Shown here piece after piece: positions 8,558 to 26,827 of a DNA stretch of 53,107 bases. Origin of the DNA: a virus. Lineage: Duplodnaviria; Caudoviricetes. Made by a program: the position numbers and the translations under genes. The DNA is taken from IMG/VR virus record IMGVR_UViG_3300024246_000006, positions 1 through 53,107 of that record. One strand, written 5' to 3'. Under the pieces are notes generated by a model. The model ran no database searches. It worked only from the letters and a program-made list of their open reading frames with translations, and was not told where the DNA came from. Positions within the stretch are counted from its first letter, which is position 1, and every line of letters begins with the position of its first letter.

Positions 8558-8577
8558 ACTTCAGGGAGGGCAAGAAG

Positions 8578-8993: not shown

Positions 8994-9220
8994 CGAACGA
9001 GGAACGCGAGCGCATCGACGCGCGAAACGGCATCACGCCGACCCATCGCGACCTGCTCGATGCGTCGATGGAAATCGGCGGCGTCTGCGAAATGGCATGC
9101 TGGGCATCATCGGCGGTCGCGGCGCTCATCGACAGCACCGGCAAAAAAGTCGATGATTTGACGGTCGGCGAGTTGCGCAAGCTGCTCGACGATGATGCCA
9201 GGGATCGGAGCCGGCGATGA
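8990..9220 (+). CDS. hypothetical early protein
   Basis: ATGA overlap, GGAG RBS. Confidence 0.55.
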   Translation: MTNEERERIDARNGITPTHRDLLDASMEIGGVCEMACWASSAVAALIDSTGKKVDDLTVGELRKLLDDDARDRSRR

Positions 9221-9472
9221 CCCGCGCGCGCAGCTCCAAGGTCATCCGCAACGTCCCGGTTCGGTCGCGCCGGCGCGAAGAAGCCTGCCACTCATCGCTC
9301 GGACACAGGCGTCATCACCAGTGTGCTCGAGCGCGCCCTCACCCAGGGCAACATCGATTCGCGCCAGGTGCTCGCGGAAATGAAAGGTGCGCTATCGCTC
9401 AGGCATCCCGCGCTTGCCCGTGACATCGACCGCGTGCTCGAGATCACGCTCAAGCAGGACCTGCAGCGATGA
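9217..9472 (+). pseudogene. hypothetical gene with apparent frameshift
   Basis: ATG 9217 overlaps the upstream stop, but the protein-like frame ending at TGA 9472 (overlapping the next ATG) is offset by +1. Confidence 0.35.
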
Positions 9473-9732
9473 CCCACATGCAAACGGACCGCCAGCGCCT
9501 GCTCGATGCGATTCGCGTAGCCGTCACCGACCCCGCGCTCAAGACCACACGCTCACGCGTGATGGAGCTGATCGGCCTCATCAATGCATTCGATCCCGCG
9601 CTCGCCACCGCGATCTCCACGCTCGTGATCGGCACCGAAGACGCGGACAAGCTGCCGGCGCTATGGCCGAACGTGAACCAGGTCGGCGACTACGAACGCC
9701 GCGCCGCATACACCGAGGAGCCAGCGAAATGA
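9469..9732 (+). CDS. hypothetical early protein
   Basis: Operon packing. Confidence 0.6.
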   Translation: MTHMQTDRQRLLDAIRVAVTDPALKTTRSRVMELIGLINAFDPALATAISTLVIGTEDADKLPALWPNVNQVGDYERRAAYTEEPAK

Positions 9733-9974
9733 TCACCGGCCTGGTCTACGCAGCGATCGTGCTCGCCGCAGCGGCGCTCTTCTTCTGGTGTTGCCATCGG
9801 ATCAGGCAAGCCGGAAGCCTCACACGCCGGGCGCTCGAATCGCTCGGCGAGCTCGGCGCCGACGCCTACCCAAGCCCGACCAGCGGCGAGATCTGCCCGG
9901 TCTGCACACGCGGACCGTTCTCAGCACCGTGCACATTCGAAAAATGCCCACGCCAAGCCAGGGAGAAATCATGA
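9729..9974 (+). CDS. hypothetical membrane-anchored protein with Cys cluster
   Basis: N-terminal TM segment; CPVC...C...C. Confidence 0.55.
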   Translation: MITGLVYAAIVLAAAALFFWCCHRIRQAGSLTRRALESLGELGADAYPSPTSGEICPVCTRGPFSAPCTFEKCPRQAREKS

Positions 9975-10288
9975 CCGTGACTTATCGCTCGGAGCCGGAA
10001 ATCCACGCCCGTATGCGCATCGCCATCGGCAGCTTAGCGCTCCTCGCACTCGTCACACTGCTCGCCATCATGCAGCACCGCGACGAGCAGGCCCGCATCG
10101 AGGAAGAGGCGCGCCGCATCGCCAGCATGAAGCGCGCCGCATGCAAGCCGGCGCGTGAAGGCGAGCGCCTGCATCAATTCGTCGACACCGAAGCCGACTG
10201 GCAACCAGCCAAACGCTACTGCATCTATGTGCGCAGCATCGCCGGCATCCGCCCCCAGGTGCGCACCGAACTCGCTTCATCGAATTAG
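9971..10288 (+). CDS. hypothetical membrane-anchored protein
   Basis: TM segment IAIGSLALLALVTLLAIM; ATGA overlap. Confidence 0.55.
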   Translation: MTVTYRSEPEIHARMRIAIGSLALLALVTLLAIMQHRDEQARIEEEARRIASMKRAACKPAREGERLHQFVDTEADWQPAKRYCIYVRSIAGIRPQVRTELASSN

Positions 10289-10300
10289 GAGACTTCCCCA

Positions 10301-11002
10301 ATGTTCGCAGAGTTGAAGGCGCTTGCCGCCAAAGGCCCTATCGCAATGATGATCATCGCGGAGGGCGAGGAGCTACGCGTCACGGTGACGCAGAAAGCCA
10401 AGAAGCCGCTCTCGGTATCGGTGAGCGGCAGCCCGGAAGATCTCGATCGCGAGCTGATCGGCGCGATCACGGCCGACACCGCAGCGCCGAGCGCATCGGT
10501 GGTCGAGCAAGTGCGCACGCAGCTCTCCGCTCAGCCTGCCGAGAAGAAAGGCAACACCACGCCCGCGGCCACCGCATCGACCAAAACCGCCAAAGCGAAG
10601 ACCACGAAGCCCAAACGCGCGGCGAAGGCACCGCCGGCACCGAAGAAACCTGCCGCCAAGAAAGCACCCGCGGCGAAGAAGGCGGTCACCACTCCGCGCG
10701 CGAGCCTGCCGGGTAAGCCCGAGTGCCTCGCTGATCTCAAGGCCGCACTCGCCAAGCACGGCGACAAGCTGAACCGCGAGACCTTCATCGCCGAAGCGCC
10801 CACCGGCCGGCGCTTCGAAAAGCTGTGGAGCGGCTGGAAGGCGTTCATCGCCGCCGGCGCCAAGGTAGCCGCGGCACCGACAGAACCGGCCGCACCGGCA
10901 GCCGCTGCCAGCACGCCTGCCGACACCAAGACGCTGCCGCTCTTCGACAGCGCATCGGCGCCGGCACCGGTAGCACCAGCCGCCGCGGCGATCATCGAGT
11001 AG
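10301..11002 (+). CDS. PRTRC system protein E-like
   Basis: N-terminal MFAEL...PLSVSVSGSPEDLDREL domain, Ala/Lys/Pro-rich linker, C-terminal TLPLF; first gene of the cassette. Confidence 0.75.
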   Translation: MFAELKALAAKGPIAMMIIAEGEELRVTVTQKAKKPLSVSVSGSPEDLDRELIGAITADTAAPSASVVEQVRTQLSAQPAEKKGNTTPAATASTKTAKAKTTKPKRAAKAPPAPKKPAAKKAPAAKKAVTTPRASLPGKPECLADLKAALAKHGDKLNRETFIAEAPTGRRFEKLWSGWKAFIAAGAKVAAAPTEPAAPAAAASTPADTKTLPLFDSASAPAPVAPAAAAIIE

Positions 11003-11008
11003 ACCGCC

Positions 11009-11419
11009 ATGTCCCTCAAAGTCGAAAAAGCCACGCGCGAGTTCCGCTACAACAACATCCCGCTCGCCGATCCGGGCATCGCCATGAGCGCGGAGGAAGT
11101 GCGCACGTTCTACGCGAACGTCTACCCCGAGATCGTCAACGCCGAGATAGACGGCCCCGAGGCGAAAGGCGCGAAGCAGGTCTACACGTTCCGGCGCGCG
11201 GTCGGGACGAAGGGCGGCGACGTTGTCCCGCTCCATCGTGAAGAACCGGCACCCGCCGCCGGATCTCCCGGCTGGCCAATGCTGTGCGCCCGATTCAATA
11301 CGACGCCAGCAGAACTGCATGACCGCGTGCGCCCGCTCTTTCTCTGGATGTACGAGCAAGGCATCAACGAACTCACGATCACGCGTACCGGATCGAAAGC
11401 GATGGTGAGCGTCAAGTGA
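11009..11419 (+). CDS. PRTRC system protein C (ubiquitin-like) with C-terminal extension
   Basis: REFRYN-LADP-EEVRTFYANVYPEIVNAEIDGP-YTFRRAVGTKG core, followed by 67 extra residues. Confidence 0.85.
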   Translation: MSLKVEKATREFRYNNIPLADPGIAMSAEEVRTFYANVYPEIVNAEIDGPEAKGAKQVYTFRRAVGTKGGDVVPLHREEPAPAAGSPGWPMLCARFNTTPAELHDRVRPLFLWMYEQGINELTITRTGSKAMVSVK

Positions 11420-11622
11420 AAACCGACTTGCGCGCGCACCTGCAGGCGCACATCGCCGGCGAGGTAGCCAAGCCCCGCGGCAATGCACTGACGCAAGCCG
11501 ACGTCAAGAAGGCCCGCGCGTTCTCCCGCGCATGCGCTGCGCTCCATCACGCCGCTTGGTTCCACAACGGCGATGATGGCCGCATCAGCGCGCCGCCGAA
11601 ACACTTGCCCCCACTGCCATGA
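11416..11622 (+). CDS. hypothetical protein within the PRTRC cassette
   Basis: GTGA and ATGA overlaps on both sides. Confidence 0.55.
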   Translation: MKTDLRAHLQAHIAGEVAKPRGNALTQADVKKARAFSRACAALHHAAWFHNGDDGRISAPPKHLPPLP

Positions 11623-12641
11623 TGCTCGAGCTCGCCAACCTCGGCCGCGTGCCGAGGTACTACACGCTTCACCGCGAATCGGTGGCAGCCGCGCGCACCG
11701 CGATGGCGCTGCTTGATATCGGCGCACTGCCGGAGAACGCGCCGATCACCGCGCCCGTCGAGCTCGTGAAGCTTGGCCTCAAGAAATGGATCGAGCGCCA
11801 TACCGAGAAGCTCCACTCATTTCGTTTCCAATTGGGCTACACCGAGCACCAATTCGAGGAGTACGGCAATCAGCAAACGCCTATCGCCCAAAGCGACGTC
11901 GTCACGATCTCGATCAGCCACGCTTGCGCAGGCCAGTTCCTGATCGGGGACAAAACACAGCGCGCCGAGCGCATGATCCGCGGCCTGGGCGAGACAGCGC
12001 TCTATTGGCTCGGGCAATGCTTCCGGAATCTGACGCCGGTCATCACGCCCGAGATAACGCTCGACTTCGCGCGCTGGAATTACTGGAAAGGCGAAGAGGA
12101 CGAGACAGCCACCCTCGCGGATGCCAGCATGAACGGCGACGGCCCCTTCGAGATCCTCACCCGCGCGCAGTTCGACAAAATGATTCCGCGCTGGGCATCG
12201 AGTCCGCGCCCGCGCATCAATCAGGATCGGCTTCGCCAGCTCGCCAACCCGCGCCGGCGCATGCTAACCGGCGAGCTTGCCCGCGCGCTGGTGACGCTCA
12301 TCAATGCGCTCGGCAAAAACCGCAAGCGCATCAGTTCCGGCCAGATCGAGGAAGAAAAGCCCGCAGCCGACCCGTTGATCGTGCTGCGCTGGAGCATGAA
12401 AGACCCGACCGCGCAGATCATGGACGACTTCTACGAAGATCTATGGCAAACCGGCGAGGAGGCGCATCACTTCGCAGCGCTCGAATTCAATACCAAAGCC
12501 AAGGGCTACGCCAATATGCTCCGCGAATTTCTGCGCGGCACCGAGGCGCTCTTCGAGATCCTGAGCGCCATGCTCGGCGTGGTTCGCGTGCTGAACTCCT
12601 CGAAGACGATCGCGGACCGCTACGCGGTCGGGGACTTCTGA
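11619..12641 (+). CDS. PRTRC system protein F-like
   Basis: Position between C and B; GLGETALYWL...YWKGEEDE...IPRWA...QIMDD pattern. Confidence 0.7.
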   Translation: MMLELANLGRVPRYYTLHRESVAAARTAMALLDIGALPENAPITAPVELVKLGLKKWIERHTEKLHSFRFQLGYTEHQFEEYGNQQTPIAQSDVVTISISHACAGQFLIGDKTQRAERMIRGLGETALYWLGQCFRNLTPVITPEITLDFARWNYWKGEEDETATLADASMNGDGPFEILTRAQFDKMIPRWASSPRPRINQDRLRQLANPRRRMLTGELARALVTLINALGKNRKRISSGQIEEEKPAADPLIVLRWSMKDPTAQIMDDFYEDLWQTGEEAHHFAALEFNTKAKGYANMLREFLRGTEALFEILSAMLGVVRVLNSSKTIADRYAVGDF

Positions 12642-12642
12642 C

Positions 12643-13437
12643 ATGGCGCACGTCAAGCTGCAGATCCGCTCTGCCGGCGAAGAACGCTACCGCCTCGAGC
12701 GCGCCATCCTGATCTACGAATCGAATTTTCATGCGAGCGGCGTGCCCAACGGCCACGAGCCCTACGCGACGCTGCACAACATCGTGCGCGGCAAGGGTGG
12801 ACCGCAGCTCGCCCCAGGCGTGCCCGCAACGGCCGAGGCCTGCGCGGCGTTCGCCCAGGCGATGCAGGATCACGCGGCGTTCGCCGGATTCATCTCGCCG
12901 AACATCCTATATGTCGGTCCGCGATTGACGGCCTGGTGGCGAGCGCCGGCGCCGGCTCGAGTATGGTTCAAGGTCGAAGAAGCGCGCGAAGAGAAAACAC
13001 CAGCCTCCCAGCGCATCGGCGAGAGGAGCGCGATCACGCCGCAGCCGGGATTGATCTTCGCTTGCGCGGATTCCGAGTGGCATGTCTTCGCGGTGAAAGG
13101 CGCCGATCGCCCGGGCCCGGCAACGCAGATCTGGCGCGCACCCTACTTCAACGTATGGGAACTCGGCCATATCTGCGAGGGCAACATCGAGCGCCCGAAA
13201 CGCGTATCGAGCGACACGATCGATCGCTTCGAGCGCGCGTTCTTCGACTCGCGCTTCACACACCCGAACGCGCACAAGGGCCTCGTCAACTTCAAAGGCG
13301 GCTCGCACGCGTTCTGGCGCGCCATGCTCGATCAGCGCTGGAAACATTTCCCGGAGCGCTGCCTGGTGCGTGAAGGCGCGCACACGCTGGAGTCACTCGT
13401 GAAGACCCTGCAGGAGACGCGCCACCGTGCCCGCTAA
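12643..13437 (+). CDS. PRTRC system protein B (prokaryotic E2-like)
   Basis: APYFNVWELGHICEGN (candidate catalytic Cys) and FFDSRFTHPN. Confidence 0.85.
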   Translation: MAHVKLQIRSAGEERYRLERAILIYESNFHASGVPNGHEPYATLHNIVRGKGGPQLAPGVPATAEACAAFAQAMQDHAAFAGFISPNILYVGPRLTAWWRAPAPARVWFKVEEAREEKTPASQRIGERSAITPQPGLIFACADSEWHVFAVKGADRPGPATQIWRAPYFNVWELGHICEGNIERPKRVSSDTIDRFERAFFDSRFTHPNAHKGLVNFKGGSHAFWRAMLDQRWKHFPERCLVREGAHTLESLVKTLQETRHRAR

Positions 13438-14050
13438 GACCGATGCCCGCGATACGCTGCTGCAGCAGACCTGCCCGACGGTGATGGCGCCGAAGTTCGG
13501 CGCGTTCGCCCCGCTCATGGAAAACGGCCATCGCTTTCTGGTGGCATCGAGCGGACTGTGGCTGGAACTGCGCCGGCCGTGGTTCTATCTGCGCTATCCG
13601 GTCTGTGAAGAGCCGCGCGTGGCGCTGCCCTACGGCGAGATCGAAATCGAGACCGCGTTCGCCTTCGACCTTGATACCGATGCCGCGCCGTTGTTGGCTC
13701 GATTCGTGGAGGAAGCGCGCGACGCACTCCCGGCCGAGCACGCGGCCTGGATCATCTGGAACGACGTAACGCGCGCGCTCGAGTACCGTCCGTGCATCGC
13801 GATCGCGGCCGGCGCCGGCGGCATCGAGTATCACCGTCCGAAGCTGGAAGAACACGAGAGCCTGGCGATCGATGTGCATTCGCACGGCGGGATCGAAGCG
13901 TTTTTCTCGAACACCGACGATGAAGACGACCTCGGCGAAGTGAAGATCGCGGTGGTGTTCGGCAAGCTCGATGGGCCTGACTTCGCGATGACGAAGCGCA
14001 TCTGCGCGCTGGGGCTTTTCCTGGAAGACGAGGAGATGCCCGCGCCATGA
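13427..14050 (+). CDS. PRTRC system protein A (JAB/JAMM metalloprotease)
   Basis: E...HSH-x7-S-x2-D motif (PAEHAAW; DVHSHGGIEAFFSNTD). Confidence 0.9.
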   Translation: MPAKTDARDTLLQQTCPTVMAPKFGAFAPLMENGHRFLVASSGLWLELRRPWFYLRYPVCEEPRVALPYGEIEIETAFAFDLDTDAAPLLARFVEEARDALPAEHAAWIIWNDVTRALEYRPCIAIAAGAGGIEYHRPKLEEHESLAIDVHSHGGIEAFFSNTDDEDDLGEVKIAVVFGKLDGPDFAMTKRICALGLFLEDEEMPAP

Positions 14051-14850
14051 TCCATAAGCTGCGCCTCGATCGCTATGACGAGCGCCTGAGAGTGCGGCTC
14101 GTGGGCTGTGGCGGCAACGGCTCGCAGATGCTGACCGGGCTCGCGCGTCTGCATAAGGCGCTGGTTGCACTCGGCCAACGCGGACTTTATGTCATCGCCA
14201 ACGATCCGGACACGGTATCGCCGGCGAACATCGGTAGGCAGCTTTTCTCACCGGGCGACGTCGGCCGCAACAAGGCCGTGGTGCTGGTGCACCGCTTGAA
14301 TTCGTTCTTCGGGCTCGACTGGAATGCCGAGCCCTTCGCGTTCAAGTTCACCGACAAGACGGCTGACATCCTGGTGAGCTGCGTCGATTCGCGCAAGTCG
14401 CGCGCATCGATCGACGATGCATTGACCCGCCGCGGCATGTTCAACAACAACCGCCCGGGCCCCGAGTATTGGCTCGACCTGGGAAATCGCGCCGCCGACG
14501 GCCAGATGGTGCTCGGCCAGCCGGCGCAGAACAAGCGCTGGGCGGCGGACAAGACGCGGCTGCCGACAGTCGCGGAGTTGTTTCCGGAGATCGTGGATAC
14601 ACACCACAAAGAAGATACCGCGCCGAGCTGCTCGCTCGCCGAGGCGCTGCAAAAGCAGGAGCTCTTCGTTAACCAGGCGGTCGTCACCCAGGCGCTCGCA
14701 CTGCTCTGGCAGGTCCTGCGCCACGGCGAGACCGACTGGCACGGCGCATTCGTGAATTGCAAGTCCGGCCGCGTCATACCGCTGCCGGTGGATCCCGCAG
14801 CATGGCAACGGCTGCGGGAAGGTCAACAACAGAAGAAGGGAAAATGGTAA
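14047..14850 (+). CDS. PRTRC ThiF-family E1-like adenylyltransferase
   Basis: VGCGGNG nucleotide-binding loop, DPDTVSPANIGRQ, SCVD, LDLGN and PSCSLAEAL (candidate catalytic Cys). Confidence 0.9.
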   Translation: MIHKLRLDRYDERLRVRLVGCGGNGSQMLTGLARLHKALVALGQRGLYVIANDPDTVSPANIGRQLFSPGDVGRNKAVVLVHRLNSFFGLDWNAEPFAFKFTDKTADILVSCVDSRKSRASIDDALTRRGMFNNNRPGPEYWLDLGNRAADGQMVLGQPAQNKRWAADKTRLPTVAELFPEIVDTHHKEDTAPSCSLAEALQKQELFVNQAVVTQALALLWQVLRHGETDWHGAFVNCKSGRVIPLPVDPAAWQRLREGQQQKKGKW

Positions 14851-15143
14851 TGGAAAACCAGCACACACTGATCAGCGGCTATCGCGATCTGACGAAACCG
14901 GAGATCGATGCCATCAACGAGGTGAAGAAACTCGCGGAGAGCTGCGGTGCGCTCATCGGTGCATTCGAAGGCCTGGCGCAATGCAAGGCGGCTGATTCGT
15001 CATTGCCCTATGCGCAGATCGTGAACGCATACGGTCTCTCGCAGCGGCTCCCCGATCCGCGCTGGCTTGCGCTCGCGAAGACCGATCTGCAGCGCGGATT
15101 GATGGCGCTCACGCGCGCCATAGCGAAACCGGACGGGTTCTGA
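14850..15143 (+). CDS. acb2: Acb2-like anti-CBASS cyclic-oligonucleotide sponge
   Basis: MENQHTLISGYRDLTKPEIDAINEVK...RWLALAKTDLQRGLMALTRAIAKPDGF matches the Acb2 signature; TAATG overlap with ThiF. Confidence 0.85.
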   Translation: MENQHTLISGYRDLTKPEIDAINEVKKLAESCGALIGAFEGLAQCKAADSSLPYAQIVNAYGLSQRLPDPRWLALAKTDLQRGLMALTRAIAKPDGF

Positions 15144-15146
15144 TCC

Positions 15147-15653
15147 GTGACGCTGGTCGCATTCACCGTCGACGAAGCCAACGCGTTGAACGCCTCGCAC
15201 CGGTTCAATTGCGGACCTGCAGCGCTTTGCGCTGTGACGGGTCTGCGACCGATCGAGGCGCTTGCCGTCATTCCGCATTTCGCGGAGCGCGGCTATACCA
15301 ATCCGAAAATGATGGCGGCGGCGCTCACGGCGATCGGTGCGTCGTGGCGGCGTACGTGGGAATGCAGCGACGCAATTAAGCCAGAGCACCCGCAATTTCC
15401 TGAGTTTGGATTGGTCCGCGTTCAATGGGATGGCCCTTGGTGCAAGCCAGGCGTACCGGCCGTCGCGCGTTACTTTCATTCCCATTGGATTGCCGTCGAC
15501 GACGCACGAATCTTCGACATCAACTGCCTGTGCGTCGGCGGCTGGGTGCCGTGGCTCGAATGGGATACGCAAGTCGTGCCGTGGCTCCTCAAGGACACCA
15601 AAGCATCCGGTAATTGGTGGCCGACGAAATGTTGGGATGTCGCACGGCCATGA
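15147..15653 (+). CDS. putative papain-like (C39-like) cysteine peptidase
   Basis: NCGPAAL, HWIAV and IFD give Cys-His-Asp in papain-like order. Confidence 0.5.
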   Translation: MTLVAFTVDEANALNASHRFNCGPAALCAVTGLRPIEALAVIPHFAERGYTNPKMMAAALTAIGASWRRTWECSDAIKPEHPQFPEFGLVRVQWDGPWCKPGVPAVARYFHSHWIAVDDARIFDINCLCVGGWVPWLEWDTQVVPWLLKDTKASGNWWPTKCWDVARP

Positions 15654-15937
15654 CCGCGCTCTCCATCTTCGGCGCGACCTTCGTCCTGGTGCTGGCGCTC
15701 GGCCTGCAGAGCCTGAACGTCAACCGCGGTCACTATGCAGCGGCGTTTCTCACGAGTCTCGCGATCAGCTCCGCGCAGCTCGCCATCCTCAAGATCGTGC
15801 CGGCAGCCGAAGCGCCGGTTGATTACCTCGCTTTCATGTCCGGCGGTCCGCTTGGCATCGTCTGCGCGATGTACCTGCACCCGTTGATCGTCCGGCGTTT
15901 GTTCAATCGCAGCACCAACAAGGAGTCAAGTTCATGA
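15650..15937 (+). CDS. small multi-pass membrane protein
   Basis: Three hydrophobic segments; ATGA overlaps. Confidence 0.65.
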   Translation: MTALSIFGATFVLVLALGLQSLNVNRGHYAAAFLTSLAISSAQLAILKIVPAAEAPVDYLAFMSGGPLGIVCAMYLHPLIVRRLFNRSTNKESSS

Positions 15938-16548
15938 ACGAGGCTGTTGCAACACACGTCATCCCAACCGCGCCAGGCACGCCGTTCGCCGGCGGTTTCT
16001 ACGTCGGCCGCATCCGCGTGCTCGACGATGTTTGCGCGCTCATTCTCGCGCCGAAATTCGAAGGCGAACGCGCGCCGGGGATCTGGAACAAGCGCAGCAC
16101 CAATCTCGAAGCAGCCATGAGCTTCTTCGATGGCGAGGCCAATACGTGCGCCATGGCTGGCACCGGCAGCGAGTTGGCCGCCTGGGCGCTCGCGCTTTCG
16201 ATCGGCGGCTTCACCGATTGGCACATCCCGAGCCGCGACGAGCTCGAGCTTTGCTACCGCAACTTGAAGCCCGGCACCGAAACGAACTATTGCTTCCGCG
16301 GCGACAATCCCTCGAGCGTGCCCGTCGGCCATTCGTATCTCCGCGATGCGCCCGCTCAGTGCCAGATCGAAGCATTCCGCGCCGGCGGCGCCGAGGCGTT
16401 CGAAGAAGAATACTACTGGTCATCCACGCAGTACGCCGGCCTCGCCGGCTGTGCCTGGGCGCAGGCTTTCGACGACGGCAGCCAGGACCTCTACCTCAAG
16501 GGCCTCGAGTTCAGGGCCCGAGCTGTCCGCAGATTGATCATTCGCTGA
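15934..16548 (+). CDS. DGR target 1 (DUF1566/CLec-like)
   Basis: GFTDWHIPSRDEL, YWSST and RARAVRR motifs; C-terminal VR1. Confidence 0.9.
   Translation: MNEAVATHVIPTAPGTPFAGGFYVGRIRVLDDVCALILAPKFEGERAPGIWNKRSTNLEAAMSFFDGEANTCAMAGTGSELAAWALALSIGGFTDWHIPSRDELELCYRNLKPGTETNYCFRGDNPSSVPVGHSYLRDAPAQCQIEAFRAGGAEAFEEEYYWSSTQYAGLAGCAWAQAFDDGSQDLYLKGLEFRARAVRRLIIR
16426..16534 (+). repeat. DGR variable repeat VR1
   Basis: 109-nt ungapped match to TR; 18 mismatches at TR adenines and 1 non-A mismatch near the 3' end. Confidence 0.95.
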
Positions 16549-16584
16549 TTCAGTCATTCACCCATTTTTCGCGGAGCGATTTTT

Positions 16585-17082
16585 ATGAACAATGATTTGA
16601 CTGCCCAGCACCTAGCGCAGGAAGTGACCGTCACGCTTCCGCTTGGCGTGGTACTGCGCATCGCCGATCAATCGATCCCGGCCACTTTGGTTTCGGCATC
16701 GGCATTGATCCTGTCCCGGTTCGACGATCTGCCGGCGATCGGCGCCGAGTACGGAGGCGGCATGTTCGCCGGCATCACCGTTCACGAGAACGCGCCGGCA
16801 GCGCTCGTTCTGCTGCCCGGCTCGCGCGAGAACGTCATCTGGAGCGATGCCAAGCAGTGGGCCGGCGAGCAAGGCGGCGAGCTGCCATCGCGTTTTGATC
16901 AGCTTGCGCTCTTCAAGAACCTGAAGCGCGAATTCGCCGGCGAGTGGTATTGGAGCGGCGAACAGTCCGCCGGCACCGCCTACTATGCCTGGGCGCAGGG
17001 TTTCCACTACGGCGACCAGCTCTACTACCGCAAGGACCTCAAGGTCAGGGCCCGAGCTGTCCGCAGATTGGTGATTCGGTAA
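16585..17082 (+). CDS. DGR target 2 (DUF1566/CLec-like)
   Basis: LPSR, YWSG and RARAVRR motifs; C-terminal VR2. Confidence 0.9.
   Translation: MNNDLTAQHLAQEVTVTLPLGVVLRIADQSIPATLVSASALILSRFDDLPAIGAEYGGGMFAGITVHENAPAALVLLPGSRENVIWSDAKQWAGEQGGELPSRFDQLALFKNLKREFAGEWYWSGEQSAGTAYYAWAQGFHYGDQLYYRKDLKVRARAVRRLVIR
16963..17068 (+). repeat. DGR variable repeat VR2
   Basis: 106-nt ungapped match to TR; 14 mismatches at TR adenines and 3 non-A mismatches. Confidence 0.95.
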
Positions 17083-17116
17083 TTCAACCATTCGATCATT
17101 GAAGGGAGTTTTTTTC

Positions 17117-17554
17117 ATGGCCAAGAAATCGACCAAACGTCCAGCAGCAAAACGCGGAGCGCCTGTCTCGCGCGCGCGTAAACCCGCCGCGCCGGCGAAG
17201 GTGCCCAAGATCGGCGCCAAGTACCAGGGCGGCATCTACGCCGGCCTGACGCTCCATGACAACAAGCCGATGGCGCTCATCCTGCTGCCTGGCGAGCGCG
17301 AGAACATCACCTGGGATGATGCCGTAAAGTGGGCCGCAAAATACAAAGGCAAACTGCCATCGCGCGTCGATCAGCTCGTGCTCCGCGAGAATGTCAAAGC
17401 ACAATTCAAGGACGCGACCTATTGGTCGGGAGCTCAGTACGCCGGCAACGACGCCTATGCCTGGGCGCAGCATTTCAACTACGGCACCCAGAACACCTAC
17501 CACAAGGACGACGAGTTCAGGGCCCGAGCCGTCCGCAGATTGCCCATTGAGTAA
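17117..17554 (+). CDS. DGR target 3 (DUF1566/CLec-like, basic N-terminal tail)
   Basis: GGGAG RBS; paralogous to target 2; C-terminal VR3. Confidence 0.9.
   Translation: MAKKSTKRPAAKRGAPVSRARKPAAPAKVPKIGAKYQGGIYAGLTLHDNKPMALILLPGERENITWDDAVKWAAKYKGKLPSRVDQLVLRENVKAQFKDATYWSGAQYAGNDAYAWAQHFNYGTQNTYHKDDEFRARAVRRLPIE
17435..17540 (+). repeat. DGR variable repeat VR3
   Basis: 106-nt ungapped match to TR; 7 mismatches, all at TR adenines. Confidence 0.95.
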
Positions 17555-17581
17555 TTCGCTCATTCGATAATTTCCATCAGC

Positions 17582-17959
17582 ATGGCTCTTCACACTGATT
17601 TGCCCATCTACAAAGTCGGCTACGACCTGCTCGGCGTAGCCGTCGACTCGATCAAGGACATGCCGCGCGACGTCAAGCAGGCGCTCGGCTCCAAGATCCG
17701 CGACGAGTGCATCGACTCGATGCTGCTGATCCGCAAAGCCAATATCGCCGCCGACAAGGAGCCGCACCTTTTGTCCTTGCTCGAGCGGCTGGAGGTTGTG
17801 GAGCTGCTGGTCCGCGTCTCGCGCGACAAACGCTTCATTACCACCAAGCGCTACGCGGCCGTTATCGAGCTGACGCAACGGATCGGAAAACAGGCGAACG
17901 GCTGGCGCAATCAACAACGCCTGCTGCACCCTCGTCAAGGCGAGGATGCCCGTGCGTGA
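17582..17959 (+). CDS. avd: DGR accessory variability determinant (four-helix bundle)
   Basis: LPIYK...MPRDVKQALG...IGKQANGW; lies between the targets and TR/RT. Confidence 0.85.
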   Translation: MALHTDLPIYKVGYDLLGVAVDSIKDMPRDVKQALGSKIRDECIDSMLLIRKANIAADKEPHLLSLLERLEVVELLVRVSRDKRFITTKRYAAVIELTQRIGKQANGWRNQQRLLHPRQGEDARA

Positions 17960-19355
17960 TCATCAATCTGGTCGTGCCGCTGGCCCGCTGTTCGGGGCCA
18001 CCGCCATGCGCGCAACGGATACCTCCGGCCAGCTCGATCTCTTTGGCGGCCGGGACGCGTCCGGCGCAGTTTCCCCGCCGATCGAGGCCGGTCCGGATCT
18101 TCGGCGGGGCGATGTAGATAGCACGATAGGACGCAGTACGCCGGCAACGACGACTATGCCTGGGCGCAGAATTTCAACAACGGCAACCAGAACAACTACC
18201 ACAAGGACAACAAGTTCAGGGCCCGAGCCGTCCGCAGATGGATCTGCCAGTCACCACCATGCTGATTTTTCTTTCGCGGAGTTAGTCGCCGCCTACTTCG
18301 ATTGCCGGCGCACCAAGAGAAACTCCGCCAACGCGCTCGCCTTCGAGCAGGATCTCGAGCGCAATCTCACCGAGCTCTTCGAGGAGCTGGCCGCGCGATC
18401 GTACAAGCCCGGCCGCGCAATCTGCTTCGTCATCACCAGGCCCAAGCCGCGCGAAGTGTGGGCCGCGCAATCCCGCGATCGTGTCGTGCATCATCTGCTC
18501 TACAACCGGATCGCGGCACGCTTCGAGAACGCGTTCATCGCCGATAGCTGCGCCTGTATTCCGGGCCGGGGCACGCTCTATGCAGCGCGCCGGCTCGAGG
18601 CGAAGATCAGGAGCCATACCGAAAACTGGTCGCGCCACGCCTTCTATCTGAAATGCGATCTCGCCAATTTCTTCGTCAGCATCGACAAGCGCATCCTGAG
18701 CGTCCAGCTCGCCGCGCGCGTCACGGAGCCCTTCTGGTCATGGTTGACCGACGTCGTGCTGTTCCACGATCCGCGCGTCGACGTCCGGATGCACGCAACG
18801 CCGGCACTGCTCGCCCTGGTCCCGGCGCATAAGCGGCTTGCCAATCAGCCCGCGCACCTGGGCCTGCCGATCGGCAACCTGTCATCGCAATTCTTCGCCA
18901 ACGTCTATCTCGATGCGCTGGATCAGCATGTCAAGCACCGGCTGCGCGCACGGCACTACGTGCGCTATGTCGATGATTTCATCCTGCTCCACGATTCACC
19001 GCAATGGCTGAACGGGGCGCTCAGTGACATCAGGGAATTTCTGCCGCGCGAGCTCGGCGTTCGATTGAATGAAAGCAAGACGGTCCTGCAGCCGATCGAT
19101 CGCGGCGTCGATTTTGTCGGCCATGTGATCAAGCCGTGGCGCCGGTCGATCCGGCTGCGCACCGTGCGATCGGCGTTCAATCGCCTCGCCGGCATGGCGC
19201 AGGAGCACGTCTACGAGTCCGCGAATAGCTACTTCGGCATGCTGCGCCAGGCGCCGGCGAGCCACCACGAACGGGCGCAGTTCGCGAATCTGCTTCGCCG
19301 GCGTGGACAGGTCGTCGATCGCGCGTTCACCAAGACGTTTCGGAGAATCGCATGA
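17946..19355 (+). CDS. DGR reverse transcriptase (start uncertain)
   Basis: PKPREVWAA, RDRVVHH, LKCDLANFF, GLPIGNLSSQFFANVYL, YVRYVDD and GVDFVG motifs. Confidence 0.95.
   Translation: MPVRDHQSGRAAGPLFGATAMRATDTSGQLDLFGGRDASGAVSPPIEAGPDLRRGDVDSTIGRSTPATTTMPGRRISTTATRTTTTRTTSSGPEPSADGSASHHHADFSFAELVAAYFDCRRTKRNSANALAFEQDLERNLTELFEELAARSYKPGRAICFVITRPKPREVWAAQSRDRVVHHLLYNRIAARFENAFIADSCACIPGRGTLYAARRLEAKIRSHTENWSRHAFYLKCDLANFFVSIDKRILSVQLAARVTEPFWSWLTDVVLFHDPRVDVRMHATPALLALVPAHKRLANQPAHLGLPIGNLSSQFFANVYLDALDQHVKHRLRARHYVRYVDDFILLHDSPQWLNGALSDIREFLPRELGVRLNESKTVLQPIDRGVDFVGHVIKPWRRSIRLRTVRSAFNRLAGMAQEHVYESANSYFGMLRQAPASHHERAQFANLLRRRGQVVDRAFTKTFRRIA
18131..18239 (+). ncRNA. DGR template repeat (TR)
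   Basis: Adenine-rich master copy (7 AAC plus 1 AAT codon in the target frame) between avd and the RT core. Confidence 0.95.
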
Positions 19356-19816
19356 TCCTTGCGGACGTGATGCGTATCTACGACGGCTCAAGCGGCGACG
19401 ACACCAAGGCGCTGTACGCGCGCCTCGAGCAGCTCGGCCCAAACGGGCAGATCGCGCTCAATCTGTTCCGCGCGCAGAAGAACTCCGCGCGCGCCAAGGT
19501 ATATCGCGGAGGCGGCTACCGCGGGAAAGCCTATGACCGCAAGCAATGGGCGATCGACAATCTGGCCGCAATTCTCACCCAGCATGCCGAAGCGTGCGCG
19601 ATCCGTTGGGGCTGGGGAATCGACGACGCTCAGGAATATCACCGAGTCGTTCTTTACATTGATCTGCCGATCGGTCAGGTCAGTTTTCACACAGCGATGC
19701 GCGGCGCCGGACCGGACTACCCGGGTGAATGGGATGGCATCCCCAACGCGTCGATCGGCCGCATCTGCAGTTGGTGCGCACGCCTGCTGTCAGCACAAGC
19801 GGAGGTCCAACCATGA
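19352..19816 (+). CDS. hypothetical phage protein
   Basis: ATGA overlap with the RT. Confidence 0.7.
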   Translation: MILADVMRIYDGSSGDDTKALYARLEQLGPNGQIALNLFRAQKNSARAKVYRGGGYRGKAYDRKQWAIDNLAAILTQHAEACAIRWGWGIDDAQEYHRVVLYIDLPIGQVSFHTAMRGAGPDYPGEWDGIPNASIGRICSWCARLLSAQAEVQP

Positions 19817-19998
19817 AATCCCTCGGCCAGAAAATCACCCAGCTCCAAGGCCTCGTCGGCACCAAAGACGTGACCGAGTGGCAGAGCAACTTCATTGCCA
19901 GCATCGGCCGGCAAAGCGATGGCGGCGCCGATACACAGCGGCTCACCGAGCGCCAGGTCAAGATCATCGAAGAAATCTGGGCAATACACTTCGCGTGA
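19813..19998 (+). CDS. hypothetical phage protein
   Basis: GGAGG RBS, ATGA overlap. Confidence 0.6.
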   Translation: MKSLGQKITQLQGLVGTKDVTEWQSNFIASIGRQSDGGADTQRLTERQVKIIEEIWAIHFA

Positions 19999-20119
19999 AC
20001 TCGCCCTCCCTTCTCCTGCGCATGATCGCGAGACGGATCGCAGCCGATCTCACTGCCGAATTCGCGGGGCATGACATCGAGGTACAATCCCCCGCGGCCG
20101 ACCACCGAAGAGGCGCCCA

Positions 20120-21742
20120 TTGCGCGCAGCAAGCTACGCCCGTTATTCCACTGACAAGCAGCGCGAAACCTCCGTCGAAGACCAGCACCGCCTGAACCGG
20201 CAGTACGCTGCGCGGGAAGGCTGGCAGCTCGTCGCCGAATATTCGGATCGGGAGATCAAGGGCTCCACGCCTGTTGCACTTCGCGCCGGCGGCAAGATGC
20301 TGCTTGCCGACGTCCTGGCCGGGCGCATCGACGTGCTGCTGATCGAGTGCCTCGATCGGCTCTCGCGCGATTCCGTCGAGCAGGAGCAGGTAGTGCGCCG
20401 CTGCGAGCGCAGGGGCTTGCGCATCATCGGCATCGCGGACCACTACGATTCCACCGCCGCCGGCCGGAAGATGACCCGCAAGTTCCGCGGCATCATCAAC
20501 GAGATCTACCTGGACGATCTGCGCGCCAAAGTGCATCGTGGACTGTCCGGCCAGATCGAGCGCGGCTTCTACGCGGGAGGGCTCGCCTACGGCTATCGAT
20601 CCATGCCGGTCGACGTCGACGCGCAGGGCAACGCGCGCGGCCACCGGCTGGAAATCGTGGAGAGTGAAGCCGCGATCGTGCGCGAGATCTTCGCGCGTTT
20701 CGCCAGCGGCGAGAGCTGCCAGCGTATCGCCGCGGCATTGAACGCTCGAGGAGCGAGCGGACCGCGCGGCGGGACCTGGTCGGTCTCCGCGATTTATGGC
20801 ACTCCGCGCAAGGGCACCGGCATTCTCAACAATGAACTCTATACCGGGCGCTATGTATGGAATCGCTCGCAGTGGGTGACCGACCCTGACACCGGGCGCC
20901 GGCAGCGGCTCGAGCGGCCGAGAGCGGAGTGGATGATTGATGAGCGCGCCGAGCTCGCGATCGTCGAGCCGGCGTTATGGGAAAGGGCGAAAGCCGCCCA
21001 GGTGGCCAGGAGCGTTCCGGAGGGCAAACGCAGCAAGGGACGCGCACCCAGCACGTTGCTGGGCGGCCTGATGCGCTGCGGGCTATGCGGCGGGGCGCTG
21101 ATAGCGGTCAATGCCAGGGCATACGGCTGCGGAGCGCGCAAGGATCGCGGGCCGCATGTGTGCGCCGGGTTGCTGGTGCGCCGGGACCTGCTCGAGGATC
21201 GGGTGATCGAAGCGGTGACGGGCCTGCTCTTAGAGCCGCGCTGGCTCGCCGAGCTGCAGGCGATGATAGCGGAGGAGCTTGCCGAATCGAAGCGGGAGGC
21301 CAAGATCGGCGAGGGAGATCGCCGGCGCCGGCGCGGTGAGATCGAGCAGGAAATCGCCAACCTGGTCGACGCCCTGGCCAAGGTCGGCTACTCCGAGGCG
21401 GTCCACCAGCGCCTGGTCACCCTGGAAGCCGAATTGGAGCGCCTACAGCGTGCCGGCTCTGGCAAGGCGCGCATAGTGGTCACCGACCTCGCCGCGCGCT
21501 ACAAGCGGGAAATTGACGCCTTGGCGGTCCTATTACGCTCGGACGTACAAAACGCGCGCCCGGCGCTGCAGGAAGTGCTCGGAGAGGCCAGGTTGACGCC
21601 CGCAACCCCTGACAAAGGGTTCTGGGCCGAGATCGCCCTGCGAGCCGACCGGCTGCTCATTGCCGCAGCCGGCGACGCGTATCTAGGCGGTGGTAGCGGG
21701 GGTCCGCTTTCGACTCCAGCTATCAGGGTTCGAATTATCTGA
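20120..21742 (+). CDS. large serine recombinase (integrase)
   Basis: YARYSTDKQ catalytic Ser, DRLSR, recombinase domain (YGY, ILNNELYTG), Zn ribbon CGLCG...C...C and coiled coil. Confidence 0.92.
   Translation: MRAASYARYSTDKQRETSVEDQHRLNRQYAAREGWQLVAEYSDREIKGSTPVALRAGGKMLLADVLAGRIDVLLIECLDRLSRDSVEQEQVVRRCERRGLRIIGIADHYDSTAAGRKMTRKFRGIINEIYLDDLRAKVHRGLSGQIERGFYAGGLAYGYRSMPVDVDAQGNARGHRLEIVESEAAIVREIFARFASGESCQRIAAALNARGASGPRGGTWSVSAIYGTPRKGTGILNNELYTGRYVWNRSQWVTDPDTGRRQRLERPRAEWMIDERAELAIVEPALWERAKAAQVARSVPEGKRSKGRAPSTLLGGLMRCGLCGGALIAVNARAYGCGARKDRGPHVCAGLLVRRDLLEDRVIEAVTGLLLEPRWLAELQAMIAEELAESKREAKIGEGDRRRRRGEIEQEIANLVDALAKVGYSEAVHQRLVTLEAELERLQRAGSGKARIVVTDLAARYKREIDALAVLLRSDVQNARPALQEVLGEARLTPATPDKGFWAEIALRADRLLIAAAGDAYLGGGSGGPLSTPAIRVRII
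21691..21702. other. candidate attP core inside the integrase 3' end
   Basis: TGGTAGCGGGGG is the reverse complement of CCCCCGCTACCA, a tRNA-Met-like 3' end. Confidence 0.55.
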
Positions 21743-21849
21743 TTTACCGCAGAAGAATTCAATCGTTGGTTGACTTCCCCCGCCCGTCTGGCTCTCGCCT
21801 TCGGCTCGCCCGTCCCCTTCGGGGACCGGCCGCCAGTCGGGCGGGAGAA

Positions 21850-21876
21850 GGGCCGCGACCTAACGGTCGCGGCCCC
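21850..21876. terminator. hairpin between converging operons
   Basis: GGGCCGCGACC-TAAC-GGTCGCGGCCC perfect stem. Confidence 0.55.
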
Positions 21877-21880
21877 GCTT

Positions 21881-22015
21881 TCAAACCAACAACACCCCGA
21901 CAATAAACCCCAATACGAAACCGATCAGCAGCCCGGTGCCGAGCGGATGGCCCTTCGCCCAGGCGCTCACCTCTTCTTCAGCGTGCTGCAGTTCCTGCTT
22001 GGTCTGGTCGTCCAT
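21881..22015 (-). CDS. small tail-anchored membrane protein (44 aa)
   Basis: MDDQTKQE...HPLGTGLLIGFVLGFIVGVLLV; AGGAG RBS; below the ORF-track size cutoff. Confidence 0.55.
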   Translation of the reverse strand: MDDQTKQELQHAEEEVSAWAKGHPLGTGLLIGFVLGFIVGVLLV

Positions 22016-22304
22016 CTGAACTCTCCTGGCACTGTTTGACGATACGTTCAACGAATGCAATCAGCCCCTCGTGCTGCTGGCGACACTCGAAATACGCGCC
22101 GAGTGCGTCAGTGTGGTTGACGAGGAGCGTCCCCGCCTTGCCGTCCGGGATCGGAGGCGCCGGCGACTCCGGGCAATGCTGCATCAGGTTTGCTTGCGGC
22201 GGAGGCACCTGACACGACCCCTTTGTTGGCAGCGTTCCACTGCACGACGCCAGAATCAGGCAGGCACACAACAGCGTACTGAGTCTGCTTTTCGATGATT
22301 TCAC
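21978..22304 (-). CDS. o-spanin (Rz1-like lipoprotein)
   Basis: Lipobox LILASC, Pro-rich, C...C; overlaps the i-spanin in another frame. Confidence 0.7.
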   Translation of the reverse strand: MKSSKSRLSTLLCACLILASCSGTLPTKGSCQVPPPQANLMQHCPESPAPPIPDGKAGTLLVNHTDALGAYFECRQQHEGLIAFVERIVKQCQESSDGRPDQAGTAAR

Positions 22305-22560
22305 GCTGTACCTCGTTATTGATCGTCTTGTTCACTACACGAATCTTGCCAACCGCGGTCTGCGTGTCGCCGGCGATCTTCGCCGTGTCGGCCGAGACAC
22401 TCTTCAATCCCTGCACGTCGCTTTGCAGCGCCGCGATTGCCGTGTCTTTCCACTTGTCCTGGACCTTCACCTCGCCATAGCGCTCGGCCTTGTACGCGGT
22501 CGTGGCATTGCTCGCGATCAGCAACACCAGGAAGATCAGAAGCATCGTCGGGCTCGGCAT
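22108..22560 (-). CDS. i-spanin (Rz-like)
   Basis: N-terminal TM segment, coiled coil, VCLPDSGVVQWNAAN. Confidence 0.7.
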   Translation of the reverse strand: MPSPTMLLIFLVLLIASNATTAYKAERYGEVKVQDKWKDTAIAALQSDVQGLKSVSADTAKIAGDTQTAVGKIRVVNKTINNEVQREIIEKQTQYAVVCLPDSGVVQWNAANKGVVSGASAASKPDAALPGVAGASDPGRQGGDAPRQPH

Positions 22561-24399: not shown

Positions 24400-25332
24400 A
24401 TGCAAGACAACGTCACCATCAGCACCTTCCAGCTTTTCCAGTTGTACCCGGACGCCGAAGCTGGCCGGAAATACCTCGAAGCCGTGCTGTGGCCGAAGGG
24501 CGCGCGTTGCCCGGTGTGCGGCCTGACCGAGCGAGTCACGCCACGCACAGGGAAGGGCAAAGAGGGTTTCTACAAGTGCAACCAGTGCGCCGAGGATTTC
24601 ACCGTGCGCACCGGAACGATTTTCGAACGCTCGCACGTTCCGCTGCACAAATGGATTTACGCGATGTACCTGATGGTGACTGCACGCAAGGGCGTCTCGT
24701 CGCTGCAACTGTCCAAGGAAATCGGCATTACGCAGAAGTCTGCGTGGTTCGTTCTTCAGCGGCTTCGCGAAGCGTGCGGCAACGATCCGAGCGTGCTTAT
24801 CGGTATCGTCGAAATCGACGAGACGTATATCGGCGGAAAGGAAAAGAACAAACACGCGAGCAAGAAACTGCATGCGGGTCGTGGCGCTGTCGGCAAGACT
24901 GCCGTACTCGGCATGCGTCAACGCGGTGGCCGCACAATCGCCGCTCCAGTTGCCAACACTGATGCCAGCACGTTGCGCGCCGAAATCACGAACAACATCA
25001 TTCCTGGATCGACGATCTACACGGACGACCACGGCGGCTATCGCAATATGAACGATGCCGGCTACACACACGAAGCCGTAAATCACAGCGGCGGCGAGTA
25101 TGTGCGCGGCAACGCGAGCACGAACGGCATCGAATCCGTGTGGGCCGTGCTCAAGCGCGGCATCAACGGCGTCTATCACCAAGTCAGCCCGAAGCACTTG
25201 AGCCGGTACGTTGACGAGTTCACCTTCCGCCTGAACGATGGCAACGTGAAGCGCCACACGCTCGACCGTCTGGATAGTTTCGTCAAGGCGACTCAAGGTC
25301 GCGGCATCACGTACAAACAGCTTATCCAGTGA
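24400..25332 (+). CDS. IS1595-family transposase
   Basis: CPVC...CNQC Zn ribbon, HTH, VEIDETYIGG, IYTDD and TNGIESVW. Confidence 0.95.
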   Translation: MQDNVTISTFQLFQLYPDAEAGRKYLEAVLWPKGARCPVCGLTERVTPRTGKGKEGFYKCNQCAEDFTVRTGTIFERSHVPLHKWIYAMYLMVTARKGVSSLQLSKEIGITQKSAWFVLQRLREACGNDPSVLIGIVEIDETYIGGKEKNKHASKKLHAGRGAVGKTAVLGMRQRGGRTIAAPVANTDASTLRAEITNNIIPGSTIYTDDHGGYRNMNDAGYTHEAVNHSGGEYVRGNASTNGIESVWAVLKRGINGVYHQVSPKHLSRYVDEFTFRLNDGNVKRHTLDRLDSFVKATQGRGITYKQLIQ

Positions 25333-25469
25333 GCAAGTCACCGCATCACCCGAAGCTACCGAAGGAGTTCCACCGAATGGTGGAAACCGTGCTGGCGTAC
25401 AAGCCGAAGCCGAAGAGCAAGCCGGCGAAGAAGCGCGCGCGGCGGGCGAAGAAAATCGCAAGGCCATAG
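25329..25469 (+). CDS. small basic protein following the transposase
   Basis: GTGA overlap; VLAYKPKPKSKPAKKRARR. Confidence 0.55.
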   Translation: MSKSPHHPKLPKEFHRMVETVLAYKPKPKSKPAKKRARRAKKIARP

Positions 25470-26438
25470 ATGCGTTTCCTTGCTCTCGTCCTTGCGCTAT
25501 TTGTTGGCGTTGCATCATCACAGGACACACCACAGCCAAAGCGCGAACGCACAGTTACCCAGCGAGCAGAGGACAAGCGCGGAACCGAGAACGCGCCTCT
25601 TGTGATCAAGGGCGATATAACCACCAAGACTGCCGAAAAAACCGAAGAGGATAGACACGCCGAGATAGAAAAAGCGGATACCGATGCTTGGATAATGAGA
25701 TTTACTGGGCTGGCCGCATTGTTCACTATGTTGCTTGTAGTCGTTACAGGGGTTCTCGCTTGGTTCACCTATGGATTGTGGAGCGCGACCGTGGCGCTCG
25801 CCCGCGACGCCAAGGCGACTAGCGACAGACAGGCGCGAGATGTGCAAGAGTCCCTGACGGTCTCCAGACAATCCGCTGATGCAGCCAAAGCCGCAGCAGA
25901 GGCTGCGCAGGCGCAAGCACAGCTTGCTGATAACGATCTCCGACGGTCGCATCGACCTTGGATTGCGGTAACCAGCCTGAAGACATGCGGCCCGCTTGTT
26001 TTCGACGATCACGGATTCCGTGCCTGCGTTGACATTACGGTAAAAAACGGCGGCTCCTCTCCGGCAATAGGAACCACAATTCTTACTGAGATAAAAATTT
26101 CTGAATTCCCCGGAAATCCTTTGGAACAGGTTATGCAAATACATCCCCAAACAGCCATGAACTTGAGCAGCATAACCGGAGCGTTGTTGCTGCCCAACGC
26201 GGAGACAACGTGGGATCAGCGCGAAATACAAACCGTCCTCAACGTCAATTACGTCCCTAGAGCGGACGGACTGTCGGTTTGGTTGGGTGGATTTGTTGCC
26301 TACCGAGATGAATTCAACCTTCCTCACGCGACAAGCTTCTTGTTCAGATGGGTAACTCCTGAAAAGGGCGCTATAAAAGACAAGGGAGATATTCTTGGAG
26401 CCTTTCAAGACGCCGGAGTTGGAAGCGACGCCCGCTGA
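25470..26438 (+). CDS. IS passenger: exported or membrane-anchored hypothetical protein
   Basis: Signal peptide, TM segment, coiled coil and RPWI...KNGGSSPA beta domain; lower GC. Confidence 0.7.
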   Translation: MRFLALVLALFVGVASSQDTPQPKRERTVTQRAEDKRGTENAPLVIKGDITTKTAEKTEEDRHAEIEKADTDAWIMRFTGLAALFTMLLVVVTGVLAWFTYGLWSATVALARDAKATSDRQARDVQESLTVSRQSADAAKAAAEAAQAQAQLADNDLRRSHRPWIAVTSLKTCGPLVFDDHGFRACVDITVKNGGSSPAIGTTILTEIKISEFPGNPLEQVMQIHPQTAMNLSSITGALLLPNAETTWDQREIQTVLNVNYVPRADGLSVWLGGFVAYRDEFNLPHATSFLFRWVTPEKGAIKDKGDILGAFQDAGVGSDAR

Positions 26439-26583
26439 CGGAAGTAGAGCAAGGCACAACAACAATAACGAAAGCATGTTGGCAAACATGCGAGCGGCGC
26501 GCGATTTTGCAAGAGCGAAACACCGGCCTGTCGCTCGGAATTTTGGGCGTAGTGGTGTCGTGGAGTCAAGTATATAGTTCCCT

Positions 26584-26826: not shown

Positions 26827-26827
26827 A

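Follow-up and report, generated by a model that had tools for sequence, protein, structure and literature searches.

A three-target diversity-generating retroelement in the non-structural operon of a soil phage, with possible intracellular binding proteins as its targets

Diversity-generating retroelements (DGRs) of phages are usually read as host-range devices, on the model of Bordetella phage BPP-1, whose single target, the tail-fibre tip protein Mtd (381 aa), is encoded in the structural region. The locus described here raises the question of what such an element diversifies when its targets are placed elsewhere in the genome. The window, IMG/VR virus record IMGVR_UViG_3300024246_000006, is the entire record (53,107 bp, estimated to be 100% complete) of a soil phage, a myophage, and carries on its plus strand (15934-19355) a DGR that, unlike that of BPP-1, serves three stand-alone targets of 145-204 aa in a non-structural operon. 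The non-structural location of the targets is well supported, both in this phage and across a clade of related elements. That they are intracellular binders rather than virion receptor-binding proteins is the best reading of this context, plausible but unproven, and we would give it roughly even weight.

The template repeat (TR, 18134-18239), as delimited by repeat search and ungapped comparison, spans 106 nt and contains 34 adenines. The three variable repeats, VR1 (16429-16534), VR2 (16963-17068), and VR3 (17435-17540), differ from it at 18, 14, and 7 adenine sites and at 1, 3, and 0 other positions, respectively, so that 39 of the 43 mismatches fall on TR adenines, which make up 34 of the 106 positions (binomial P = 1.5e-15). 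An earlier note on this DNA had reported the same counts for gapless matches to a TR at 18131-18239. Its left limit holds for VR1 only: at 109 nt the adenine and non-adenine mismatches become 18/1, 15/5, and 8/1 for VR1, VR2, and VR3, because 18131-18133 matches in VR1 alone. All but two of the TR adenines (32 of 34) occupy the first or second codon position of the target frame, where seven codons read AAC, and the codons that differ between VRs and TR comprise 34 non-synonymous and 2 synonymous changes. In theory, each target could take on ~1e19 protein variants.

Over its final 26 nt, the repeat is rich in G+C and shows no change at adenine sites, with one or two non-adenine differences in VR1 and VR2. 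The TR and VRs part directly after ...GCAGAT, and the distance from the VR end to the stop codon is 14 nt in each target. The similarity among the targets (repeat family D1) continues for 32 nt beyond each VR, at 16535-16566, 17069-17100, and 17541-17572 on the plus strand, and has no equivalent after the TR. We regard this shared flank as a candidate target-recognition element.

Each VR closes the reading frame of a small plus-strand gene. Target 1 (T1, 15934-16548, 204 aa) consists of a single Lcl_C/DUF1566 C-type-lectin-fold domain in which VR1 encodes residues 166-200. It matches Pfam Lcl_C (PF07603) at 41 bits against a cut-off of 34.9 and phrog_4245 at E 1.8e-30, while an NCBIfam search with T1 returned no family. 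The AlphaFold model (pLDDT 95.6) places ~15 residues before the fold. Its closest solved structure is the Legionella Lcl C-terminal domain (8q4e, Z 12.6), followed by a Bacteroides fimbrial protein (Z 11.6) and Bdellovibrio Bd2740 (Z 8.7), and after these by C-type lectins and the DGR variable proteins TvpA (Z 6.3) and TaqVP (Z 5.4). A literature search on HbP1/8Q4E returned nothing relevant, only an unrelated human gene.

Target 2 (T2, 16585-17082, 165 aa) joins an N-terminal extension of ~55 aa to a minimal Lcl_C-like domain, which scores 20.6 bits with Pfam Lcl_C, under the 34.9 cut-off, E 1e-07 with phrog_4245, and E 5e-15 with a profile of the T1 family. Target 3 (T3, 17117-17554) starts at an ATG at 17117 or a TTG at 17099, giving 145 or 151 aa, and carries a Lys/Arg-rich tail of ~33 aa ahead of its own minimal Lcl_C-like domain. 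The latter reaches 28.1 bits with Pfam Lcl_C, again under the cut-off, and matches the T1-family profile. The T3 model has a pLDDT of 92.8, with values of 69-81 and no secondary structure over the first 30 residues, and its leading Foldseek match is 8q4e (E 7.7e-06), followed by C-type lectins. T1-T3 are thus three paralogous small C-type-lectin-fold (Lcl_C/DUF1566) proteins with variable last 35 residues, and their measured lengths of 204, 165, and 145 aa bear out the range of 145-204 aa given earlier. The suggestion that their different N-termini select different partners is speculation; T1 has only ~15 residues before its fold, and the tail of T3 is modeled at lower confidence. When T1 is aligned with its 45 orthologues, variability is greatest at codons that hold TR adenines, with a mean entropy of 2.21 bits compared with 0.94 bits at the other VR codons and 1.50 bits in the scaffold.

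The remaining components of the element follow the targets on the same strand. The avd gene (17582-17959) encodes a 125-aa protein that matches Pfam bAvd (48.4 bits, cut-off 40) and phrog_3206, named ‘Avd protein of DGR’ (E 1.1e-26), and scores 49.6 bits with NCBIfam DivGenRetAVD, under its cut-off of 80. The structured RNA RT-15 (Rfam RF03018) occupies 17915-18133 at 150.1 bits, compared with a gathering score of 82, and covers the full model from 1 to 192. The reverse transcriptase (RT, 18156-19355) matches Pfam RVT_1 at 66.5 bits, and its translation contains YVDD and IGNLSSQ. The latter follows the pattern [I/L]GxxxSQ, which we take to be a mark of DGR RTs. The element thus has the marks of a DGR: a DGR-type RT, adenine-biased TR/VR pairs, Avd, and a C-terminal VR in a C-type-lectin fold. 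In these respects, and in the order target-avd-TR-RT, it resembles that of BPP-1.

The two elements differ in the arrangement of RNA and RT. Here, RT-15 lies upstream of the TR, its end abuts the TR start exactly, and it was found at the equivalent position in 10 of 10 related loci scanned. In BPP-1, the structured RNA is Rfam RT-10 and lies between TR and RT (Weinberg 2017). Since the RNA motif is 5′ of the TR in one case and 3′ of it in the other, the geometry of cDNA priming may differ. The RT start is also unlike that of BPP-1, falling inside or just after the TR with RT-15 upstream (17915-18255): the RT frame is free of stops from 17946 on, its first ATG past RT-15 is at 18156, within the TR, and conserved RT sequence begins at ~18255, with relatives aligning from about residue 1-6 of a query that starts there.

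The genes around the targets are those of a non-structural operon. The minus strand from ~22 to 53 kb encodes the sheath, baseplate, tape measure, major head protein, and a tail-fibre-like gene (27129-27962), while the targets lie in a plus-strand block, outside the tail module and on the opposite strand from it, as the earlier note had stated. From the genes alone, no tail receptor-binding target of the BPP-1 type is found in the structural module. A primase and a repressor-like gene are located near the left end of the record. In the plus-strand block, neighbouring genes are closely spaced, overlapping or separated by <40 nt between a ThiF gene and the open reading frame (ORF) after the RT, and the order is PRTRC cassette, Acb2/Tad1-like gene, 168-aa ORF, membrane protein, T1-T3, avd, TR, RT, two small ORFs, and serine recombinase. 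The first 4 nt of T1 are also the last 4 nt of the membrane-protein gene.

The late genes contain no hidden target. With adenines left free and up to 20 of 72 non-adenine mismatches allowed, neither strand of the 53,107-bp record holds a further TR or VR copy; scans of the record with each TR half give no extra copy beyond the known four; and the BLAST search for remote VRs proposed earlier, run on the phage record, returns four places only, the TR and VR1-VR3. The T1-family profile finds no T1-like domain in the late genes or elsewhere in the record beyond the targets. The initial impression, gained by eye, that no VR lies in the tail fibre or other late genes is therefore upheld. T1-T3 are also negative for a signal peptide or lipobox by a hydropathy and lipobox heuristic that does flag the phage’s o-spanin, i-spanin, and membrane proteins. 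This agrees with the previous description of the targets and separates them from targets of the LdtA/TvpA type, at least at the level of the heuristic.

This layout is not particular to the window. The RT has at least 595 relatives in IMG/VR and at least 582 in prokaryote genomes, the latter mostly from Burkholderiales and Pseudomonas, and we analyzed the best 80 loci from each set. The RT gene is 65-72% identical to those of the best 80 IMG/VR loci, and TR/VR pairs are present in 75 of the 76 best-80 loci with room upstream of the RT, L053 being the exception. VRs were counted in loci with an RT at least 58% identical (125 loci), of which 105 have at least 2.5 kb upstream; identical duplicates (8 identical pairs) were retained. 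Among the 105, two loci have no VR by our criteria, three have one, 76 have two, 23 have three, and one has four. Three targets on one TR are not unusual but the norm in this RT clade, where 100 of 105 loci have two to four VRs. The complete target ORFs (n=239) have a median length of 180 aa and range from 56 to 372 aa, and not one of the 239 has a signal-like N-terminus or a lipobox.

The flanking genes of the clade are likewise largely non-structural. Among the first three ORFs after the RT in 51 loci (n=150), the most frequent named PHROG families are integrases (10), DNA methyltransferases (7), and HNH endonucleases (7), along with ParB-like proteins and a dNMP kinase, and no tail family appears among the 25 commonest. 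On the other side, the three ORFs that precede the targets in 50 loci mostly encode recombination proteins of the RecE, RecT, and Erf type, together with ParB and SbcC. The tail, baseplate, sheath, and capsid proteins of the window have counterparts in 0 of the best 80 loci within the flanks covered. A tail sheath is encoded in 8 of 38 records that are at least 90% complete and is lacking from the other 30, so the same target family is carried on different tail types. The cultured phages Magia and LPPA56 have the same non-structural layout. In Pseudomonas phage Medea1, whose annotation lists neither RT nor Avd, two adjacent DUF1566 genes (6271-7579, ~204 and ~207 aa) are flanked by Erf/YqaJ/SSB genes on one side and two DNA methyltransferases on the other, so T1-like genes can hold this early position without a DGR. 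Together, these comparisons identify a layout that is common to hundreds of related phages and make this element a typical member of a widespread RT-15 clade carried by temperate phages of Burkholderiales and Pseudomonas.

Related loci also bear on whether diversification takes place. Of 14 locus pairs whose RTs share at least 95% DNA identity, 8 are identical throughout, 3 could not be compared, and 3 are informative. In the first of these (L032/L033), the RT, the TR, and 300 nt of upstream sequence are identical while the VRs differ at 14 adenine sites and no others; the remaining pairs show 15 adenine-site differences against 1 other (L085/L086) and 17 against 2 (L060/L063). Judged from these sequences, the RT-15 clade is active. 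The copy in the window could nonetheless be a relic in which the differences between VRs and TR record past activity and diversification has ended, a question of activity rather than function. Over VR1-VR3, consensus contigs from a second soil sample, which belongs to a second study, do not differ from the window, giving no sign of turnover of this copy at the level of contigs, and VR3 departs from the TR at just 7 of 34 adenines. Minority variants, however, are invisible in contigs, and the near-exclusive variation of close relatives at adenine sites runs counter to decay. The element itself, as read from its sequence, is intact: RT, Avd, RT-15, TR, and the invariant 3′ ends are all preserved without frameshift or stop, and the RT aligns with its relatives over 364-366 residues at ~70% identity. 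We therefore consider a relic very unlikely.

One sequencing run from soil (X1) contains, against 17059-17517, a 258-nt low-depth contig in which VR3-like and post-VR2-like sequence are separated by 13 other letters. Other short low-depth contigs in the same run contain VR-like sequence with non-adenine differences; these differences lead us to read them as probably belonging to DGR cassettes of other phages in the soil sample, not as variants.

How might such an element work, and on what? By analogy with BPP-1, a transcript of RT-15 and TR would be copied by the RT with Avd to yield adenine-mutagenised cDNA. In every target, the VR would then be exchanged for this cDNA, with two features as guides: the GC-rich 3′ end, which is invariant among the repeats, and the conserved flank found only behind the VRs. 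In the weakest step of the scheme, the three targets would be soluble binding proteins of the cytoplasm, expressed alongside the early or accessory genes, and would take part in intracellular conflict between phage and host or between phages, for example by binding variable host defence proteins.

Several observations weigh against such an intracellular role. The T1 domain is found at the C-terminus of 497 longer homologues of 358-2000 aa; in much longer proteins of other phages, the match extends over 93-98% of its length at 30-56% identity. A tail-collar-fibre N-terminal family occurs in at least 6 of the 120 long homologues listed, and others contain fn3, Ig, or collagen domains. Because the full T1 domain occurs in fibre-type proteins, a receptor-binding ancestry is possible; the module is, by ancestry, an extracellular or virion binding tip. 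Matches in BFVD comprise small stand-alone proteins, one of them from Pseudomonas phage D3, as well as long tail-fibre-like proteins, and it is the second group that counts here. Tail fibres also lack signal peptides, so the signal-peptide argument excludes only Sec-exported display on the host surface. PADLOC assigns no family to the targets or to the adjoining ORFs without known function and so lends the proposal no support. A PHROG named ‘virion structural protein’ accounts for 4 of the 150 ORFs upstream of clade targets, the only structural name in the top 25. At the level of the element, no hairpin after the VRs exceeds shuffled sequences (z 0.3 to 1.3), whereas the BPP-1 target site has a hairpin after its VR, and the identity of VR1-VR3 between soil samples adds to this side.

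A 416-aa protein from a bacterial genome (P0024) shows the domain in a different setting, combining an Rv2179c-like 3′-5′ exoribonuclease domain (164.6 bits) with a T1-like domain of 50% identity. The exoribonuclease domain is of a cytoplasmic type, and the fusion may be real or an artefact of gene calling. As the T1 domain occurs in both contexts, it is best seen as a general binding tip, and the fold alone cannot place the targets inside or outside the cell.

The homologues with fibre repeats, fn3, or collagen and tail-collar-fibre N-termini would be expected if the targets were receptor-binding accessories, that is, stand-alone adhesin tips that dock on the tail or its fibres or are released at lysis and switch host range as in BPP-1. 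The structural neighbours of T1 are adhesin or fibre tips as well (Lcl, the Bacteroides fimbrial protein, and Bd2740), BFVD matches include proteins named as tail fibres, and the T1-like gene of phage PMBT3 follows the lysis genes on the tail-gene strand. T1, however, has no docking domain in the ~15 residues before its fold, and the targets are non-structural here as well as in Magia, LPPA56, and Medea1. The clade flanks, with no tail family in the downstream top 25 and one ‘virion structural protein’ family upstream, also speak against docking, as does the presence of the cassette on records with (8) and without (30) a sheath. On balance, we judge a receptor-binding role improbable.

The placement of the cassette next to the recombinase/integrase end of the prophage, a typical site for accessory genes, fits a further possibility, namely that the targets serve the lysogen as cytoplasmic sensors or blockers of superinfecting phages’ proteins and that the DGR varies the exclusion repertoire. 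The clade is common as provirus, the class of 24 of the 45 records examined, in addition to its matches in prokaryote genomes. DGR-diversified intracellular sensors in bacterial conflict systems have also been reported (Dore 2024 PNAS; Vallota-Eastman 2020). Nevertheless, no effector domain or partner gene is conserved beside the targets, PADLOC gives no match, and the nearest named neighbour is of an anti-defence type, Acb2/Tad1-like. The targets further appear to be co-transcribed with the long operon and not from a separate promoter, although the test is weak: a promoter and terminator scan of 8000-22500 found no excess over shuffled sequences, with 11 terminator-like sites compared to 12.1. 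A role in the lysogen thus seems unlikely to us.

Extending the intracellular reading from this phage to its relatives, the RT-15 clade would have no part in host recognition and would instead supply 2-4 hypervariable, antibody-like cytoplasmic binders, derived from a domesticated tail-fibre tip domain, against variable proteins of the host or of rival phages. We put this forward tentatively and lean against it as a general statement.

Multi-target and non-structural phage DGRs are already known, with Magia and Quimbyvirus as published precedents. The Burkholderia phage Magia (NC_070954), a myophage, is among the closest known systems, its RT and avd being 67% identical at the DNA level. Its short ‘lectin fold’ targets, gp47 and gp57, lie in the early region, after RecT, exonuclease, ATPase, and regulator genes and before HNH, excisionase, and integrase genes. 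Its announcement remarks that the targets occupy ‘relatively short reading frames’ (Microbiol Resour Announc 2021, PMC7883833). Magia differs from the phage studied here in that its annotated targets are ~120 aa, gp57 is ~5.6 kb upstream and not in tandem, the integrase is a tyrosine integrase, and no PRTRC or Acb2-like neighbours are present in the stretch shown.

The DGR of Quimbyvirus is on the strand opposite the structural genes, among defence and counter-defence genes, and has a non-structural target (Benler 2021, Microbiome, PMC8008677). It differs from the present element in several respects: one of its two targets is beside tail fibre genes, whereas all three are non-structural here, and its host belongs to the Bacteroidota and its RT is unrelated and read through frameshifts. 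Multi-target DGRs and short DUF1566-only targets have also been described, and the VRs here resemble those of category ‘d’/CLec2 DGRs (the Legionella LdtA type) in overlapping DUF1566 (Wu 2018). LdtA is a surface lipoprotein, unlike the present targets, which have no lipobox or signal-like N-terminus.

The Roux 2021 survey sets viral structural targets apart from ‘non-structural or cellular targets’, whose turnover is slower, and describes a DGR clade 3 of mixed viral and cellular elements from Proteobacteria and Bacteroidetes, to which our guess would assign this element. We found no literature on this RT clade or on the function of its targets in a search that did not extend to the supplementary tables of Wu 2018 and Roux 2021, and none that joins phage DGR, RT, C-type lectin, and anti-defense. 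None of the terms retroelement, reverse transcriptase, DGR, DUF1566, and RT-15 appears in the paper on Cruim01/Aurca01 (PMC11256456).

The clade is thus large and little discussed, with small stand-alone lectin-fold targets amid recombination, methylase, anti-defence-like, and integrase genes. The window adds one further member, for which the functional reading draws on context. Should the targets have an intracellular role, targeted hypermutation would serve the phage in its conflict with the host within the cell, and if the targets are cytoplasmic binders throughout the clade, the elements would amount to a phage-encoded adaptive counter-defence or exclusion system. If they are instead virion or adsorption factors, they would represent a new way to attach a variable tip to a tail. 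The cultured members Magia, LPPA56, and Cruim01 make the question testable.

A PRTRC ubiquitin-like cassette (11009-14850, plus strand) encodes Prok_Ub/PRTRC_C, PRTRC_F, an E2-like PRTRC_B, a JAB-type PRTRC_A, and a ThiF-type E1, all over their NCBIfam cut-offs. All five genes are found upstream of the DGR in just 2 of the 80 related loci of the best-80 set, and a general link between PRTRC and DGR was rejected on this count. An Acb2/Tad1 hairpin-domain protein (~14844-15143, plus strand; Pfam PF24729, 51.6 bits, cut-off 27) is encoded ~0.8 kb upstream of T1. The Acb2/Tad1 family comprises anti-CBASS and anti-Thoeris sponges. No such gene was found in the 80 related loci.

Two ORFs flanking the element, of 168 aa (15147-15653) and 154 aa (19352-19816), both on the plus strand, have no Pfam, PHROG, NCBIfam, or PADLOC family. 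The first contains a Cys...His pattern that may be reminiscent of papain-like peptidases; the second overlaps the end of the RT gene and has no counterpart in the 80 related loci. The membrane protein whose stop overlaps the T1 start (15614-15937, plus strand) belongs to a PHROG named holin (phrog_7045, E 2.4e-15) and is distant from the phage’s own lysis genes at 22-24 kb. Its relatives occur near the DGR in 7 of the 80 loci and make up 4 of the 150 downstream ORFs. In the late region, G+C falls to 0.54-0.58 across 25300-27100, beside the tail-fibre-like gene, where minus-strand ORFs of 394 and 131 aa match no PHROG family and may represent an exchanged distal fibre or chaperone module.

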